From Escherichia virus TH53: DNA of 52,329 bases. The DNA lies in sequence record MT446419.1; one strand, given 5' to 3'. Position 1 is the stretch's first letter, and each line of letters begins with the position of its first letter. Below are positions 1-52,329 of this stretch, one piece after another. Below the pieces are notes generated by a model. The model was given only the letters and a program-made list of their open reading frames with translations. It was not told where the DNA came from and did no database searches. A program made the position numbers and the translations under genes.

Positions 1-332
1 TCAAATTGTTTCAATATTAATGAGACTAGAATTCGTAACAAAGCTACGAGACTCGAATTGTGGCGATATTATTTTATTTTTGAGGTGGCGGGGAGGGGAA
101 GCCCAACGTCCTATCGGACTTAAAATACGGTCCCTACCCCAACTTTTTCCTACAGCCTATCGGCTTTCAAACAACACCAAGTTAGGCGCTTCGCTTATGG
201 GTCAAGGTCAAAGTCTCCGTGCTGTTGTAACAATGGCACAGGTTTGTGATATTAGTTGGAAGTGAATTGTGTAATGGCTACGCTATTATAATCCGTTTCA
301 GTTAAATCATACACAATCTTGGAGACTTACAA

Positions 333-2273
333 ATGACTACTATCACCACTCAAACTATCAAATCCGTTGTTCCTGCTATCACTGCTCTGGTATACCGTGC
401 CAAAGAGAAACAGAACTATATGCAGCCTCAGACTTGTGCTATTGCTGCCTTAGCCATCTTCAAGATGATGACGTCTTTCACTCGTGATGACGTTGTTCCT
501 GCCATCGCGATGGTTGAGCTGGCTTCTGCTTCTATTGCTGATGCCAACCGTTATAACAACGATTTGAAAGCAATGCACTATGTTGACCCAGCTATCAACC
601 TCATTGGTCTGGCTAAGCACTTTGGCTTCATCACCATGAACGAAGACAAGTCATTCCAACAAACTGATACATGGGTTGAGCTGGTTACAACTAAAGACAC
701 CGCAGTGCCATTCACTGAGCGTGTTACATCTGAATCTCGTCGCAAGCCTTTCGTTAAAGGTGGCAAAGTTAAGCCATCCAAGACTCTGAAAGCTGCAATC
801 GAATTCCTGCAAGATACTGAGTACCATGTGGAGACTGAGATGGTTCGCATCATCCAGTCCATGATTGAGCAACGTACTTATGGTGGCTTGCAGATGCCAG
901 AAGCAATCCAGACTGAACTCCATGTTTGGAACAATGCTGTAGCAATGATGAATCAGGATAAGCTGTATTCTGACTACTTTGCTGATAACCGTGGTCGTCT
1001 GTATCATGTAGCATGTGCTGGTCCTAACCCACAATCCTCTGACTTTGCTCGTTGCTTGTATTCTCACAATGTTGAGAACATCGTTAAAAAGTTTAACGAA
1101 GATGGTTCTACTACCATTGCATACAACATGTTCATGGCTGAGCTGGAAGATATTTCCGGTGGTGAATGGTGCAGTGCTAAGCGTTTAACTTATGTTGCTC
1201 AGAATCCAGCTGGTTCACTTGCTCGCATGATGAACATGCCTAAAGCTGAACGTCCTTCTAAGCCATTCACTTATGTTCGTCTGGCTCTGGATTGGTTCAA
1301 GTTTGAGACTACAGGTGAGTGTGATTCTCGTGTAGGCTTCGGCTTAGATGCTAAATGTTCTGGTACTCAATATCTGGCATTCATTGCTGGTAACATGGAA
1401 ATGGCTCGTGCAACAGGTCTGGTTGATTCTGAGACTAAAGCATCTGACCCATACCAGTTATCTCTTCGTGAACTGTTGAAGTTATTGGACCGTTCTTCAA
1501 TGAAGCCATCTCCTGAAATTATGGATGAATTCTTGAATCCGAAAGCTGGTCGTAAGTTTATCAAAACTCCATACATGGCTATCCAATATGGTGGTGGTAA
1601 AGCTGCATTGACTGGTTCTTCTGACTTCATTAGCTACATGACAGAAGCGCTCCAGATTCCTATGGAGAAAGCTGAGGCATTTGCTGAACTGTGTGTAGAA
1701 GCAATCCATAACGCATTGGGTGCTAAGATTAACATGTTCATTGAGAAGGCTGCTGATGCTGCATACAACCGTTGTGTTGAACTTGGTAAAGAGTACATCA
1801 CATACCGTCACACTGATGGTCAGGTTGTAATGAAGCCTTGCTTCCCATCTCGTGAAATCTGTGAGGCATTCAGCATTCGTGTTGACTCTCAAACTCGTGT
1901 TATCTTTGGCCAGATTCAGGAGAATAAGCCTTGGACCATTCGTGAATCCAATCCAACTAAAGAAGAATTCAAGCGTACTTTCGTTGTTAACTACATTCAA
2001 GGTATTGACGCATTGGTTGCTCGTACTGTTGCAGTTAAGGCTAAAGAAGCTGGTCTTCGTGGCTTCACTTCAATCCACGATTGTTTCCGTTGCTGCTTAG
2101 CTGATGCTCCACGCATGATGGAAGTTATTCGTGCAGCATATGTTGAAATCTTCGTAACCAACAATCAATTCGAGAATCTGTCTAAGCAACTTGGTGGCAT
2201 TCAGATGTATCATGAGAACATCGTAACCGAAGAGCTTCTGATGAGCGAACACGCTTACTACTTCTGTCAATAA
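333..2273 (+). CDS. single-subunit T7-like DNA-dependent RNA polymerase, short 646-aa form
   Basis: Seen: motif B-like RKFIKTPYMAIQYGGGK (T7 RSVTKRSVMTLAYGS) and motif C-like SIHDCFRC (T7 HDSFGT). Inference: about 240 aa shorter than T7 RNAP, so most of the N-terminal domain is absent. Confidence 0.85.
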   Translation: MTTITTQTIKSVVPAITALVYRAKEKQNYMQPQTCAIAALAIFKMMTSFTRDDVVPAIAMVELASASIADANRYNNDLKAMHYVDPAINLIGLAKHFGFITMNEDKSFQQTDTWVELVTTKDTAVPFTERVTSESRRKPFVKGGKVKPSKTLKAAIEFLQDTEYHVETEMVRIIQSMIEQRTYGGLQMPEAIQTELHVWNNAVAMMNQDKLYSDYFADNRGRLYHVACAGPNPQSSDFARCLYSHNVENIVKKFNEDGSTTIAYNMFMAELEDISGGEWCSAKRLTYVAQNPAGSLARMMNMPKAERPSKPFTYVRLALDWFKFETTGECDSRVGFGLDAKCSGTQYLAFIAGNMEMARATGLVDSETKASDPYQLSLRELLKLLDRSSMKPSPEIMDEFLNPKAGRKFIKTPYMAIQYGGGKAALTGSSDFISYMTEALQIPMEKAEAFAELCVEAIHNALGAKINMFIEKAADAAYNRCVELGKEYITYRHTDGQVVMKPCFPSREICEAFSIRVDSQTRVIFGQIQENKPWTIRESNPTKEEFKRTFVVNYIQGIDALVARTVAVKAKEAGLRGFTSIHDCFRCCLADAPRMMEVIRAAYVEIFVTNNQFENLSKQLGGIQMYHENIVTEELLMSEHAYYFCQ

Positions 2274-2313
2274 TATTAATTGGTCAAGGATGACCACAAA
2301 CTTGGAGACTACA

Positions 2314-2514
2314 ATGAATACTCAACAAATCAATCAAATCGAAAACTGTTTCAATCCTCACCACACTTGTAGCATGACTGATTTATCTCGTCCTACAGTG
2401 GAGGAGACTAAAGACTTCTTAGAATTGTTAGCAGAATATAAACAAGAGTCGCATGTATTATTACATTCATTCTTACACAATTCTGGATACTTTGATACAG
2501 AGATACCATTCTAA
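2314..2514 (+). CDS. hypothetical small protein with C-terminus ...GYFDTEIPF
   Basis: ORF in track from 2290; second in-frame ATG at 2314 has GGAG 7 nt upstream. C-terminal FDTEIPF resembles the E. coli SSB tail DFDDDIPF. Confidence 0.45.
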   Translation: MNTQQINQIENCFNPHHTCSMTDLSRPTVEETKDFLELLAEYKQESHVLLHSFLHNSGYFDTEIPF

Positions 2515-2520
2515 TATTGA

Positions 2521-2546
2521 GCCTGTCTTCGGACGGGCTTTTCTTG
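2521..2546 (+). terminator. intrinsic terminator-like hairpin
   Basis: GCCTGTC-TTCG-GACGGGC stem-loop (one G-U pair) followed by TTTTCTTG, directly after the stop at 2514. Confidence 0.5.
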
Positions 2547-2611
2547 TGTTACCACAATTTAATTCCAATATTCAAGCAATATTGCTGCATGTAATATTGT
2601 TTCAATATTCG

Positions 2612-2630
2612 ACATTAGTTGGATGTGAAG
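2612..2630 (+). promoter_or_regulatory. conserved motif ACATTAGTTGGATGTGAAG, candidate phage-RNAP promoter, copy 1
   Basis: One of seven intergenic copies of a roughly 19-nt motif, all on the + strand. Confidence 0.5.
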
Positions 2631-3451
2631 TAACAGAATACGGAGAAGTATTCCGCATGTCATGTTGAAATCATTCTAGAAACATTTCAGCATGTCAACT
2701 AAACATACAGTGTTGTAATGATGTGGCAATCATTGAACTCCCTGTCTTTGGCCGGACAAAGTTCCAACAACCATGTGTGAAGTAGGATTATCATTCGAAA
2801 CTGTTACTTCAATATAGCATGTTCAATTGCGACAATATTGCCCCATCTCCTATTATAAAGGCCCACCCACAAGCCGGGAGATAACTTTGGTAATATTGGA
2901 ACTTTTGGACATGCTTCTTTCTTTCAATCAGAATTCGAAAGGGGAGAAGAAGTCGGACAAAGCCTCTCGTTTTCACGCAGAAGCCGCCCCGATTTTGAGC
3001 AACAAATATTGTGACAATATTGTCGCAGTATGGCATGTAAATATTGCTACAAATTGGCATGTTGGAATGTGGCAGAATTGTTAGAGGACTAATCACCTCG
3101 AAGATACAATCGTCTACCAATCTGGCATGTTAATTTTGTAACAGTATTTGTGCCAATTTCGCATGTAGTATTTAACCCAATATTCTTGCAACCCGCATGA
3201 ATACTGGCTTCCAGCCAAGCGAAGGCTTTATCATCGCATGTAATATTGTGACAATATTGGGATAAAACCCTTTATTTAATTAGTTTTATTATGCTGTACA
3301 TGGTCGGTTTTCCGTACCTGCTTGCTCCAATCTTAATGTGCCAAATACGTTAAGTATGGGAGTAAACCTGTAATTAATGGTGCATGTTTAATTGTGACAA
3401 AATTCGTCTATTTGGCAGATGAGTTAGTTGCAATTAAGCATGTTCATTTAT

Positions 3452-3470
3452 CATTAGTTGCATGTGAATA
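3452..3470 (+). promoter_or_regulatory. variant motif CATTAGTTGCATGTGAA, copy 2
   Basis: Degenerate copy about 190 nt upstream of the first early gene at 3662. Confidence 0.35.
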
Positions 3471-3661
3471 AGACCAAATCTCTGTAAATTCTGCTGAAAT
3501 TGTGTGACAGATTTTAGAGAGATTATGTCTCCAAGCTAATCATTGTAGTTTTTCGGCACTTGCTGTGTCACATACTCCCTACAGCTTTAAGGTGGATTGA
3601 GGTAAGACAAGACCTCCACAATCGTTCTGTAGGGAGTTTTCTTTTAACTTAGGAGAATAAA

Positions 3662-7370: not shown

Positions 7371-7443
7371 AGGGACAAAGCTATTCCGTGGTTAGCAATG
7401 TCACTGAAACTTAAACTGTAATTAACTTAAGAGAATCTTAATC

Positions 7444-7818
7444 ATGGCACAATATTCAGATGTAAACACTGGCATCATCGGTCCTAACGGCTTCAAGAAA
7501 GACCCAAAACATCCTGACATTCGTGGACGTATTAACGTTGACGGAATCTGGTATTGGGTATCTGGCTGGAACAAGCAAGCAAATGGTAATGAGTTTACCT
7601 CACTTGCATTAACCATCATGACCCAAGAACAGGTCGATGAAATGATGCGTAAGCGTGAAGAGAAGGCTAAAGCCAAAGCTCAACCTCAAGCTGCCGCTCA
7701 ACAGCAACAGCAACGCCAGCAGCCTTCTGCACAACAGCAAGCACCTGCTCAGCAACAGCAGCAGAGCAACTACAACCCGAACGAGCCGAAAGACTTCGAC
7801 GACGACATTCCGTTCTAA
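7444..7818 (+). CDS. protein with E. coli SSB-type C-terminal tail (DFDDDIPF), possible ssDNA-binding protein or SSB-tail mimic
   Basis: Seen: C-terminus PKDFDDDIPF preceded by a Q/A-rich linker. Established: DFDDDIPF is the E. coli SSB C-terminal tip that recruits SSB-interacting proteins. Inference: the N-terminal 70 aa may be a small OB-like domain. Confidence 0.6.
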   Translation: MAQYSDVNTGIIGPNGFKKDPKHPDIRGRINVDGIWYWVSGWNKQANGNEFTSLALTIMTQEQVDEMMRKREEKAKAKAQPQAAAQQQQQRQQPSAQQQAPAQQQQQSNYNPNEPKDFDDDIPF

Positions 7819-41250: not shown

Positions 41251-42363
41251 ATGCCGTGGCTACGCAGAGTTGAAGTAATAGTTTCACGTAAAGAAGACCC
41301 AAGCATTCGGACGGTATTTAAATCACATCGTATTGATTTTGAAGTCCGTTCTACTGTTGGGTGGCCCGCCGATACAGCAAACATAACTCTGTTTAACTTG
41401 TCGCTAGAAGAAGTTAAGTTCCTCCAAGACAAGTCCTACGGAGATATGTATATTGAAATTCGTGCAGGGTATGCAGAAGATGAACGTTCCGATTCTGGTG
41501 GCGGAACTTCTAGTGGTGGTGTTAAGAAGTTTGGTCAAAAGGCTGAACAGAGCGACCGCGTAACAGTGTCCACCTCACTGCCAACCATCTTCTCTGGCAT
41601 TATCACAAACGCAGTTGGCTACAGAAAGCCTCCCGAACATGTAACACAATTGTTCTGTATTTCTAAGGCATATGGTGCATCAACTGATTTCAAACAGCTT
41701 ACTGCAATCAAGCCTGGAACCAAGCTAATTGATGCAATGCGCTCAATGTGTTCTGACTACGGATTCAATACCATCTCTACATTTGGCGTTGAAGATTCAG
41801 TCCTTGAAACAGTAATGCCTCGTGGGCGTGTGTTTCACGACACATTCTTGAATGAATTTCGTAACATGCTTGGCGAATATAATTTGCTATACACTGTTAC
41901 AACTGGTGAAGTTCAAATCTTCCCAGATACCTTTGGTGATAAAGATGCAGTAAACAGAATGTCCAAAGACAGAGAGCCAGTCCAGCTGGATGAAGACTCT
42001 GTTATTGGCAACCCTGTTGCTGGAATCTGCACCTACACTTTAAATACATTCCTAAACCCATCTTTCCAACCAGGTATGATTCTTGATGTATCTCCTTTGC
42101 TCGGTAAGGAGAAGTTGCTTGCTAACGGTGTAACTTCTGTCAATGGTGAGGGCATTGTTCTTAACACTGACCAGTCTGTATTCCGTTGGGCTGTGGAAGA
42201 CAAATACTTCATCATGGAAGTTGTGCATAAAGGTTCAACTCACACAACCACTTATCAAACATCAATCACTGCAATCTTAGGTGGCAATACAATGATGGGT
42301 GGTAAGGAAGCTGCGTGGCAAGAAATGTATGCTAACAGTGGAATGGCAATGGAGTCATTTTAA
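41251..42363 (+). CDS. tail / baseplate hub protein (putative)
   Basis: Position after the tape measure. Confidence 0.45.
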   Translation: MPWLRRVEVIVSRKEDPSIRTVFKSHRIDFEVRSTVGWPADTANITLFNLSLEEVKFLQDKSYGDMYIEIRAGYAEDERSDSGGGTSSGGVKKFGQKAEQSDRVTVSTSLPTIFSGIITNAVGYRKPPEHVTQLFCISKAYGASTDFKQLTAIKPGTKLIDAMRSMCSDYGFNTISTFGVEDSVLETVMPRGRVFHDTFLNEFRNMLGEYNLLYTVTTGEVQIFPDTFGDKDAVNRMSKDREPVQLDEDSVIGNPVAGICTYTLNTFLNPSFQPGMILDVSPLLGKEKLLANGVTSVNGEGIVLNTDQSVFRWAVEDKYFIMEVVHKGSTHTTTYQTSITAILGGNTMMGGKEAAWQEMYANSGMAMESF

Positions 42364-50497: not shown

Positions 50498-51052
50498 ATG
50501 CTATCATTCAAAGTCCTTGCACTTCTAACAGCTTTAGTTCACATCAACGCCCCAGCTTCGGTTGGGGCAGTGAATTCTGCTATTACAGATTTTGCAAGTC
50601 ATTCTTATTTAAATGGAAGTCTGAAACTATCTTCTTCACAACGCAAAGAGCTAGAATGCTACGCTAAAGTTATCTGGTATGAAGCTCGCGGAGAAGACAA
50701 ACATGGAAAGATTCTGGTAGCTAATGTCGTCCGCAATAGAACAGAGTTCGGGAAGCCATTCGCTAACACCGTTTGTGATGTTGTCTATCAACGCAATCAA
50801 TTTGCATGGACACGAGAAGCAAAGAAGAAGAATGCTCAATGGAAGCATGTAGCAAAGATTAATTATGCCACAGAACAACAACAAGTTCTGGACACCATTA
50901 ATGTTGCAATCTCTTTTGTATTATTTAATCAACCCTCTGTCACCAAAGCAACCCACTTTTGTACAGCATCGGAGAAGTGCAACTTCAAGAATGTAAAAGG
51001 TTTGGGACGTTATGGTGGCCATAAATTCTATGAGTATCTAGGAAATCTGTAA
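50498..51052 (+). CDS. SleB/CwlJ-family cell wall hydrolase with N-terminal signal sequence (endolysin)
   Basis: Seen: [29 protein letters not shown]...[15 protein letters not shown]; hydrophobic N-terminus [20 protein letters not shown]. Confidence 0.75.
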
Positions 51053-52152
51053 TGGCTTACACTACCTTTTCACAAACCAAGAATAACCAACTACTAGAGC
51101 CAATGTTCTTTGGTCAGAACGTTAACGTTGCTCGATATGACCAACAGAAGTACAGCATCTTCGAGAAGTTAATCGAGAAGCAGTTGTCTTTCTTTTGGCG
51201 ACCTGAGGAGGTTGATGTTAGCCAGGACCGAATTGACTATGCTGGCCTTCCTGAGTGTGAGAAACACATTTTCACCAGCAATTTAAGATACCAAATCCTG
51301 CTTGATTCCATTCAGGGACGCGGACCAACTACAGTTTTGCTGCCAATTGTGAGCATTCCTGAGCTGGAAACTTGGATTGAAACTTGGTCATTCTCAGAAA
51401 CAATTCACTCTCGTTCTTACACGCATATTATTCGTAATATCGTGACAGACCCAAGTGTTATTTTCGATGAAATTGTGGAGAATGAGCATATTAAAATGCG
51501 TGCAATTGGCATCTCCCAATATTATGACGAGTTGCAGCACCTAACTTCCATGTGGCATCTGCATGAAGATAAAGTTTCTCTTCGTGAGCTTAAGAAGAAG
51601 CTATATTTATGCCTCATGTCTATCAATGCGCTGGAAGCAATCCGCTTTTATGTCAGCTTTGCTTGCTCATTTGCCTTCGCTGAACGCAAGTTAATGGAAG
51701 GAAATGCCAAGATTATTCGCTTAATTGCTCGCGATGAAGCACTCCATTTGACCGGAACTCAGCACATGCTGAACCTCCTTGCAAGTGGTATTGATGACCC
51801 AGAAATGGCTGAAATTGCTAAAGAATGCCGCCAAGAATGCCAAGAAATGTTCGAAAATGTGGCCCAACAAGAGAAAGATTGGGCTGATTATTTGTTCAAA
51901 GATGGCTCAATGATTGGCTTAAACAAGCAAATTCTGTGCGGATATGTGGAATATATCACGAATATCCGTATGCAAGCAGTTGGATTGGATGCTCCATTCA
52001 AAGGTGCTACTAACCCGATTCCTTGGATTAACGCATGGTTGAATTCGGATGCTGTACAGGTTGCTCCACAGGAAACAGAGATTAGTTCGTACCTTGTCGG
52101 GCAGATTGATTCCGAAGTGGACACCAATGCTTTGGGCGGATTTGAGCTTTAA
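51052..52152 (+). CDS. nrdB: ribonucleotide reductase class Ia beta subunit
   Basis: Seen: N-terminus [22 protein letters not shown] matches E. coli NrdB as I recall it; radical/iron site [29 protein letters not shown]. Confidence 0.92.
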
Positions 52153-52241
52153 CGATTATATGTGAGAAGAGATTCGATGCGTTAGCGTCGTTTCTCTTTG
52201 AGCTAGAATAAAACAAGTAAATTAAATATTTATTTATTCCC

Positions 52242-52258
52242 AATATTGCTACAATATT
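52242..52258. repeat. terminal copy of the AATATTG-N3-CAATATT palindrome
   Basis: Perfect palindrome AATATTG-CTA-CAATATT, same family as the 2587-3475 array. Confidence 0.6.
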
Positions 52259-52329
52259 AAGAGTAATATTAGGAATGCGTAAAGTTAAAACCAAATGGTA
52301 CATGGTCGGTCAGCTGTATCTCGCCGAAA

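Follow-up and report, generated by a model that had tools for sequence, protein, structure and literature searches.

Both ends of the DNA analysed here (the window, i.e., the whole 52,329-nt stretch of record MT446419.1, Escherichia virus TH53) lie within a family of short palindromes, raising the question of whether the record opens at physical ends of the virion DNA, at a permutation point of a circular map, or at a break adjoining a control region. An earlier note on this DNA had suggested a genome terminus or permutation point. Taken as a whole, it is highly likely that the window is a unit-length genome with an assembly break at its ends, that the packaged DNA carries a terminal repeat of ~2.8 kb, and that the palindromes are conserved elements which may serve in protein binding.

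Compared to the whole Carltongylesvirus genomes of phiEcoM-GJ1, ST32 and EcoM1, the window is ~95 % identical and collinear; among EcoM1, ST32, flopper, GJ1, Mangalitsa and others, identity amounts to 90–97 % over 85–95 % of the window, with the order kept from end to end. All large non-overlapping ORFs are located on the + strand. Collinearity, the T7-like RNA polymerase and the one-direction transcription layout agree with the traits of the genus and family. The window thereby appears to represent a nearly complete, unit-length genome of Carltongylesvirus (Chaseviridae, Cleopatravirinae) from the phiEcoM-GJ1/ST32 group, and the collinearity with whole genomes bears out the supposition of near completeness in the earlier note. 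No identical record was found in the collection searched, and exact searches of IMG/VR, one for the last 37 nt and one for the first 55 nt of the window, retrieved no match. The window is a new isolate of an already known genus, with a genome architecture already known for Chaseviridae. Neither Rfam nor a tRNA scan gave a match anywhere in the window. The genes next to the two window ends are:

51052–52152, + strand: nrdB (ribonucleotide reductase small subunit), the last gene; ORF of 366 aa, annotated as nrdB in relatives.
333–2273, + strand: single-subunit (T7-like) RNA polymerase, the first gene; Pfam PF00940 (E = 6e-18), same annotation in relatives.

According to the ICTV profile, Chaseviridae possess linear DNA with direct terminal repeats of ~3 kb. 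The left physical ends of four relatives from three genera can be mapped onto the window:

Mangalitsa: repeat of 3,234 bp (PhageTerm); record starts with TTAAAATACGG; left end at window position 120.
4HA13 (Sabourvirus): repeat of 3,120 bp (PhageTerm); record start as in Mangalitsa; left end at window position 120–121.
JL1: exact 2,995-bp copy at both record ends; left end at window position 115.
Y2 (Loessnervirus): exact 2,608-bp copy at both record ends; left end at window position 117.

The four left boundaries are no more than 6 nt apart (window 115–121), with the Mangalitsa and 4HA13 records starting at TTAAA(A)TACGG, the JL1 record 5 nt and the Y2 record 3 nt earlier. The four phages resemble the window in gene order, in nucleotide identity of the end region (75–97 %), in the block CCTATCGGAC/TTAAA(A)TACGG to which their left ends map, and in the same non-coding arrays flanking a polymerase-carrying repeat of 2.6–3.2 kb. 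The window differs from them in containing a single repeat copy, in being opened ~119 nt upstream of the left end, and in an intergenic region shorter by 100–163 nt. The Mangalitsa record is likewise 52,329 nt long, which is taken as coincidence in view of an identity of ~91–93 % and a start offset of 119 nt. On the inner side, the Mangalitsa repeat (1–3234) corresponds to window 120–2949 and the 2,995-bp end duplication of JL1 to window 115–2954, which delimits the following features (the slash marks the boundary):

120–2954, + strand: predicted direct terminal repeat of ~2.84 kb, present once in the window (mapping of Mangalitsa and JL1, ICTV profile).
2949–2958, no strand: predicted inner (right) repeat boundary, GAGAAGAAGTCGGAC/AAAGC, deduced from two Carltongylesvirus relatives (Mangalitsa 2949, JL1 2954).

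The predicted repeat comprises the RNA polymerase gene, an ORF of 74 aa, a terminator and the first part of an array of palindromes and GCATGT motifs. From the ends of the relatives we infer that the virion DNA of the window phage is linear and carries a direct terminal repeat of ~2.8 kb. Given the single repeat copy in the window and these boundaries, the packaged DNA should amount to ~55.3 kb, compared to 55,571 bp for JL1 with both copies.

In case of the related phage PYps23T, a repeat of 2,339 bp has been reported from experiment (PYps paper). Its boundaries differ, since they correspond to window ~261 and ~2625, i.e., to positions exactly inside two copies of the promoter-like ATTAGTTGGA. 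This discrepancy could be genuine or stem from template switching from one ATTAGTTGGA copy to the other; neither places a boundary at window position 1. The sequence TCGGAC or CGGAC is found just 5' of both predicted cuts in the window, JL1 and 4HA13 and is a weak lead only. Local alignment of the left with the right boundary region was no better than that of shuffles in three of the four phages.

The region spanning the window ends (52153–52329 and 1–141) is organized as follows:

52166–52199, + strand: rho-independent-type terminator hairpin 3' of nrdB (RNA fold; same sequence in nine phages).
52225–52270, no strand: four AATATT hexamers (52225, 52242, 52253, 52265) including a perfect 17-bp palindrome; invariant in nine phages.
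52242–52258, no strand: perfect palindrome AATATTG-CTA-CAATATT (AATATTGCTACAATATT) of 7-3-7 layout, 72–88 nt from the window end.
52299–52321, + strand: non-coding TACATGGTCGGTCAGCTGTATCT motif; in alignments, one hybrid copy in the window versus two tandem copies in relatives.
52322–52329, no strand: last bases before the break, followed in all contiguous relatives by TTTGTTCGAACAGAAGTCCGACTATG, T-rich tracts, AATATTGCTACAGAATT and AATGAGAC.
2–18, no strand: degenerate palindrome CAAATTGTTTCAATATT, belonging to the first GAGACT-plus-palindrome unit, which is cut just after its GAGAC prefix.
22–45, + strand: GAGACT-plus-palindrome-like unit, GAGACT AGAATTCGTAACAAAGCT.
48–70, + strand: GAGACT-plus-palindrome-like unit, GAGACT CGAATTGTGGCGATATT.
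93–141, no strand: highly conserved block GGGGAGGGGAAGCCCAACGTCCTATCGGAC/TTAAAATACGGTCCCTACCCC, holding the predicted left physical end (115–121).

The terminator scan placed a stem at 52175–52190 followed by a T-run, and the RNA fold extended this stem to 52166–52199. Within the downstream cluster, the AATATT hexamers are spaced by 17, 11 and 12 nt, and the last 71 nt of the window contain a conserved motif other than the palindrome. A T-rich stretch lies between the GAGACT units and the conserved block at 93–141. Two to three GAGACT copies are present per relative (seven contiguous relatives counted), and the flopper record annotates this region as repeat_region. A small ORF from 52274 to the window end (MRKVKTKWYMVGQLYL...) was rejected as a gene, as a 1-nt indel shifts its frame among close relatives. 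Some records annotate a small ORF (MRKV...) over the TACATGGTCGGTCAGCTGTATCT motif; because close relatives read it in two different frames due to the 1-nt indel, it does not represent a gene, and what is conserved here is the DNA itself.

Perfect copies of the palindrome occur at 2593, 3005, 3242 and 52242, a copy with one mismatch at 2567, and copies with two mismatches at 2, 3016 and 3132. The distribution described in the earlier note is thus confirmed: a perfect copy is present in the last 90 nt (not at the end itself, 72 nt from it), a degenerate copy with 2 mismatches over 14 specified positions in the first 20 nt, and both match the array at 2.6–3.3 kb, which contains three of the perfect and the three further weaker copies. 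With up to two mismatches allowed, 10 matches were found in the window (0.51 expected; none of 100 shuffles reached 10), eight of them in 1,171 nt (2.2 %) composed of 52150–52329, 1–120 and 2550–3420. The self-complementary hexamer AATATT is present 48 times in the window (~22 expected), including 17 copies in the same 2.2 %, and its spacing is often 11–12 nt. Since other AT-rich palindromic hexamers showed no clustering in these 2.2 %, the clustering of the palindromes is not a matter of plain AT-richness. Two further features belong to this family:

2541–3661, + strand: non-coding region of 1.1 kb with the palindrome array (2567–3400), very strongly conserved across the genus and spanning the predicted right repeat boundary.
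3242–3320, + strand: paralogue of the 52242–52321 module (perfect palindrome, ~40-nt spacer, TACATGGTCGGTTTTCCGTACCT), located outside the repeat on its other side.

GCATGT occurs in 14 + strand copies between 2451 and 3460 and precedes most palindrome copies. The long module (perfect palindrome, ~40-nt spacer, TACATGGTCGGT...GTA(C/T)CT) at 52242–52321 and 3242–3320 flanks the repeat on the outside. In case of 4HA13 and Y2, a perfect copy with another central triplet (TAG, TCT) is found at the orthologous place after the lysis/nrdB module, followed by AGGAGT or AAGAGT. Both phages also contain units of GCATGT and AATATTG-N3-CAATATT and a perfect copy followed by GGGA. Across the three genera, the arms of the palindrome are identical and the central triplet varies; on the left, the sites occupy a zone ~70–410 nt upstream of the repeat boundary, and on the right, they begin a few hundred nt within the repeat and continue to ~450 nt beyond its boundary. 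The first palindrome beyond the right boundary follows at a distance of 46–51 nt (window, 4HA13) or 74 nt (Y2). The palindromes at the window ends are conserved regulatory-type repeats and not genome termini.

As to their function, the best guess from this anatomy is that the palindromes are candidate binding sites for a dimeric DNA-binding protein. Each 17-bp inverted repeat contains two AATATT hexamers one helical turn apart, and the arrays occupy the non-coding regions in front of the polymerase gene (just outside the repeat on the left) and of the first early gene cluster (straddling the right repeat boundary). A dimeric, sequence-specific protein of phage or host origin binding to these putative sites would regulate early transcription and/or the entry or end processing of the DNA; the palindromes would not be the cut sites themselves. 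In the degenerate copies, the half-site consensus TTG-N3-CA is kept and the complementarity of the arms is lost, and the predicted stability of the DNA hairpin is ~-3 kcal/mol for a perfect copy and ~-0.6 kcal/mol for the degenerate copy at 2–18. Protein recognition is favoured over a folded structure because the half-sites are kept without complementarity and the hairpin of even a perfect copy reaches only the former value.

Two-fold symmetry, conserved half-sites and clustering in intergenic control regions are properties of operator-type sites, and the palindromes show all three. The Cro/CI-type operators of lambdoid phages are 17 bp long, two-fold symmetric and located in intergenic control regions. 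The palindromes share with them the length of 17 bp, the conserved half-sites, the variable centre and the occurrence of several neighbouring copies. They differ in that no cognate helix-turn-helix protein was found, the phage is virulent, more than 10 sites are distributed over two arrays, and there is no clear overlap with sigma-70 promoters. Analysis of 20 early ORFs against Pfam and PHROGs gave no match to a helix-turn-helix or DNA-binding regulator; most of these ORFs belong to PHROG families of unknown function or had no match. We know of no host regulator with an AATATTG-N3-CAATATT site. A literature search on the motif and on inverted repeats in phiEcoM-GJ1-like phages retrieved nothing relevant. 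A role of the palindromes as host promoters, or a regular overlap with such promoters, was dropped, as the sigma-70 scan around the sites yielded 10 versus 10.3 and 3 versus 3.4 in the shuffled expectation.

Alternatively, the arrays may be cis-acting signals, either for an injection stop or pause at the inner repeat end as in T5, and/or for concatemer cutting and repeat duplication as in case of the elements flanking the repeat of T7; this is conceivable, though considered unlikely. In its favour, three genera have arrays just outside the left boundary and straddling the right one, the distance from the latter to the first site beyond it is conserved (46–74 nt), and conservation of the 1.1-kb non-coding region is very strong. 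Against it, the palindromes are tens to hundreds of nt away from the cuts, the left boundary region has no significant similarity to the right one, and two-step entry is without experimental support in Chaseviridae. In T7, the 160-bp terminal repeat is reportedly accompanied by the short-repeat arrays SRL/SRR and the replication promoters phiOL/phiOR. The window phage resembles T7 in its single-subunit RNA polymerase and in a direct terminal repeat bracketed by short-repeat arrays; however, the T7 repeat of 160 bp is non-coding and flanked by direct heptamers, whereas that of the window phage extends over 2.8 kb, carries the polymerase gene and is accompanied by 17-bp palindromes. In T3/T7, phiOL adjoins the terminal repeat (PMC3276506).

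The T5 part of this comparison is based on "Repeat Region 3", a highly conserved, untranslated region of 1.2 kb with repeats and palindromes, which closes the terminal repeat on its inner side, continues into unique DNA and represents a candidate injection stop signal (Davison, bioRxiv 10.1101/866236). The region at 2541–3661 of the window is similarly conserved, untranslated and rich in repeats, and spans the boundary at ~2950, so that in both phages such a region straddles the transition from the inner part of a long terminal repeat to unique DNA. The window differs from T5 in lacking sequence similarity and a DnaA-box cluster, in a repeat of 2.8 kb rather than ~10 kb, and in that two-step entry is not reported for Chaseviridae. 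DnaA boxes are present twice in the whole window (8.2 expected), with one of them (3463–3471) in the region 2541–3661, and the arrangement proposed for T5, with paired boxes in inverted repeats, is absent, which speaks against an entry signal of this type.

It is quite improbable that the T7-like RNA polymerase uses the 17-bp palindromes, which often follow a GCATGT, as promoters or parts of them, with the copies at 52242 and 3242 bracketing the repeat in the manner of phiOR/phiOL. With 17 bp, the element has the length of the -17 to -1 stretch of T7-type promoters, GGGA follows the copy at 3242 in three genera, similar modules are present outside the repeat on both sides, and the ICTV profile states that promoters of the Chaseviridae polymerase are not yet identified. 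However, the sites are two-fold symmetric, contrasting known promoters of single-subunit polymerases, the bases 3' of the element vary between copies (GGGA, AAGAG, CGACA, GTCGC), and the sites are restricted to 2.2 % of the genome. Promoters of the T7 type are asymmetric elements of ~17–23 bp ahead of middle and late gene blocks, which does not apply to the palindromes. A promoter-like distribution is instead observed for the asymmetric ACATTAGTTGGATGTGAAG motif: ACATTAGTTGGAT(G/T)TGAAG is located on the + strand ahead of gene blocks at 252, 2615, 3454, 7355, 11328, 13266, 21329 and 41213, and it is this motif that the GJ1 and SA91KD records annotate as phage promoter. Hairpin promoters of the N4 type consist of a 5–7-bp stem with a 3-nt loop and are used by a giant virion RNA polymerase. 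This type was rejected as well: a 7-bp stem with a 3-nt loop agrees with this geometry, but the hairpin amounts to only ~-3 kcal/mol and there is no gene for a giant polymerase, since the largest ORF of the window comprises 1,241 aa.

The window contains no suffix/prefix overlap, and the longest string common to both ends is 9 nt. Seven relatives are contiguous across the corresponding region (flopper, Ecp_YSF, GJ1, SA91KD, JL1, EcoM1 and ST32), and all of them contain extra non-coding sequence at the join, i.e., in order, TTTGTTCGAACAGAAGTCCGACTATG, T-rich tracts with runs of T7–T12, the palindrome-like AATATTGCTACAGAATT, and AATGAGAC. The GAGAC of the relatives is located immediately 5' of window position 1. 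The sequence absent at the window join amounts to 85 nt relative to GJ1 and ~59 nt relative to ST32. From the nrdB terminator to CGGAC/TTAAA, the joined window measures 273 nt versus 373–436 nt in the seven relatives and is hence 100–163 nt shorter. T-runs of at least 7 nt are present in all seven relatives, with the window alone lacking them. The TACATGGTCGGTCAGCTGTATCT motif region is 36–48 nt shorter than in the relatives; the window is without one of two tandem GGTCGGTCA(A/G)CTGTA units and, compared to ST32, also without one GAGACT unit, both being collapsed or deleted near the join. A 97-nt query across the join matched 43 phage records; the 25 of them that were listed all match as two pieces spanning 146–236 nt, and none of these 25 contains the end-to-start join of the window as one piece. 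Beyond both ends, the contiguous relatives show only non-coding DNA and none of the unrelated genes whose presence there the earlier note had named as speaking against its view.

The window ends are apparently an unclosed assembly or record break and not DNA termini, with an assembly gap in a stretch rich in homopolymers and repeats as the simplest reading. Other records point to difficulties at the same place: that of PO103-1 terminates in poly-T runs (35 and 64), that of FXie-2024a has an end overlap of ~127 nt beginning in a T-run, and that of SKA49 is garbled in the nrdB–polymerase intergenic region. Judging from the left ends of the relatives, the break is probably located ~115–120 bases before the real left DNA end, in a non-coding control region. 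The missing 59–85 nt could in principle also represent a real deletion coinciding with the opening point of the record. A gap is preferred over a deletion, because it is very unlikely that the breakpoints of a deletion would by chance match an arbitrary opening point exactly.

What the earlier note had called a "genome terminus or permutation point" can therefore be upheld only in part. The ends are no terminus, as there is no redundancy and the left ends of relatives map to 115–121, nor are they a closed permutation, as 59–85 nt are missing; the region does adjoin the terminal region. "Permutation point" is better read as an unclosed assembly break. The proposed opening inside a regulatory or terminal region agrees with the present finding that the opening lies in the non-coding nrdB-to-RNA-polymerase intergenic region, adjoining the terminal region.

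A circularly permuted headful genome, with the window as a closed circle and the shorter intergenic region as a real strain-specific deletion, is very unlikely. Support could be seen in the PYps paper, according to which GJ1 had been proposed to have a permuted genome and the terminases are similar to those of the headful type, in the deposition of ST32 and Ecp_YSF as circular records, and in the varying number of GAGACT units among strains. However, the end-to-start join of the window differs from the contiguous sequence of the relatives, later work revealed direct terminal repeats in Y2, PM1, PYps23T, Mangalitsa and 4HA13, and the terminases of PYps23T and GJ1 share 97 % identity. Moreover, unless the loss resulted from the break itself, a deletion at exactly the opening point would have a chance of ~1 in 52,000, and the lost segment is exactly the homopolymer-rich tract in which other assemblies fail.

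That window positions 1 and 52329 are true virion DNA ends, with the palindromes as terminal recognition elements, is hardly credible: both ends do lie in the non-coding region where Chaseviridae termini occur, and the records of SKA49, PO103-1, FXie-2024a and TH25 also end within ~300 nt of this place, but the left end is located at 115–121 and not at 1 in four relatives of three genera, the window contains no terminal repeat in contrast to the family repeats of ~3 kb, the other records ending here represent poly-T artefacts or k-mer overlap, and the window start falls into the middle of a repeat unit.

The window is best regarded as one unit length of a Carltongylesvirus genome in which a short stretch is missing at the join. 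For the record this means re-opening at ~120 and describing the direct terminal repeat of ~2.8 kb once reads confirm it. The record ends of the Carltongylesvirus group cluster in T-rich tracts for technical reasons and are not to be read as termini. The finding itself is ordinary, and the palindrome arrays add modest interest: a strongly conserved palindrome family flanking the terminal repeat in three genera is a modest but real biological residue. One may speculate, with considerable doubt, that the AATATT arrays bracketing the ~2.8-kb repeat in at least three Chaseviridae genera could be essential cis-acting signals (for cutting and duplication at packaging, or for an entry pause after the polymerase gene) or part of a promoter or regulatory code of the Chaseviridae polymerase. 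An entry pause, if true, would mean a T5-like two-step entry in a myovirus with a T7-like polymerase.

Directly 5' of both inferred cuts of the direct terminal repeat lies the pentamer CGGAC, found at this position in the window, in JL1 and in 4HA13 (boundary loci L006/L007 and L015/L016 in the relatives' records), and its presence 5' of both cuts would explain the 5-nt shift of the JL1 record. Taken as a whole, the left boundary region is not significantly similar to the right one.

Short sequence features of the window
115-119 and 2954-2958: CGGAC (window form TCGGAC) at the inferred cuts
252, 2615, 3454, 7355, 11328, 13266, 21329 and 41213, + strand: asymmetric motif (A)ACATTAGTTGGAT(G/T)TGAAG
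2660-2692: larger imperfect inverted repeat ATGTTGAAAT-N12-ATTTCAGCAT within the array, with a GCATGT motif on each side
52299-52321 and 3297-3320: DNA motif TACATGGTCGGT(N5-6)GTA(C/T)CT
3463-3471 and 42222-42230: consensus DnaA boxes

For Yersinia phage PYps23T, a terminal repeat of 2,339 bp has been reported from experiment. Its two ends each fall exactly within one copy of ATTAGTTGGA, a promoter-like motif (boundary loci L013/L014), correspond to ~261 and ~2625 of the window, and differ from the boundaries in Mangalitsa, 4HA13, JL1 and Y2; this discrepancy could reflect either template switching or a real difference. In the window, the asymmetric motif (A)ACATTAGTTGGAT(G/T)TGAAG is repeated ahead of gene blocks, and the same sequence is what the records of GJ1 and SA91KD annotate as "phage promoter". 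Despite this annotation, promoters of Chaseviridae have not yet been identified according to the ICTV profile of the family.

The public records of the relatives PO103-1, FXie-2024a and SKA49 terminate in the same region as the ends of the window and carry technical artefacts, i.e., poly-T runs of 35 and 64 at the record end of PO103-1 (end loci L020/L021), record ends overlapping by ~127 nt in FXie-2024a (L022/L023), and garbled sequence at the record end of SKA49 (L009/L010). Some of these three records additionally contain a duplicated GAGGAGGGGAAG segment right before the left end. The GenBank record of Mangalitsa is exactly as long as the window (52,329 nt); since the two share only ~91-93 % identity and their starts are offset by 119 nt, the equal length is a coincidence.

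At both of its sites in the window, the motif TACATGGTCGGT(N5-6)GTA(C/T)CT follows a perfect palindrome at a distance of ~40 nt, and in relatives a second tandem copy lies upstream of the left end. The small ORF which it overlaps is frame-shifted between relatives and is therefore non-coding.

Elsewhere in the window, a palindrome-like site with 2 mismatches (AATCATGGCACAATATT, 7440-7456) overlaps the start codon of an ORF (7444-7818) matching single-strand DNA-binding protein families (PHROGs); this overlap may be due to chance. The 52 kb contain only 2 consensus DnaA boxes versus 8.2 expected.

GCATGT occurs 37 times in the whole window, counting both strands, with 14 copies on the + strand within ~1 kb (2451-3460); a palindrome-like 17-mer usually follows it after 0-1 nt. 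The inverted repeat ATGTTGAAAT-N12-ATTTCAGCAT is fully conserved across the genus, and units of GCATGT plus a palindrome-like sequence are also present in 4HA13 (Sabourvirus) and Y2 (Loessnervirus).
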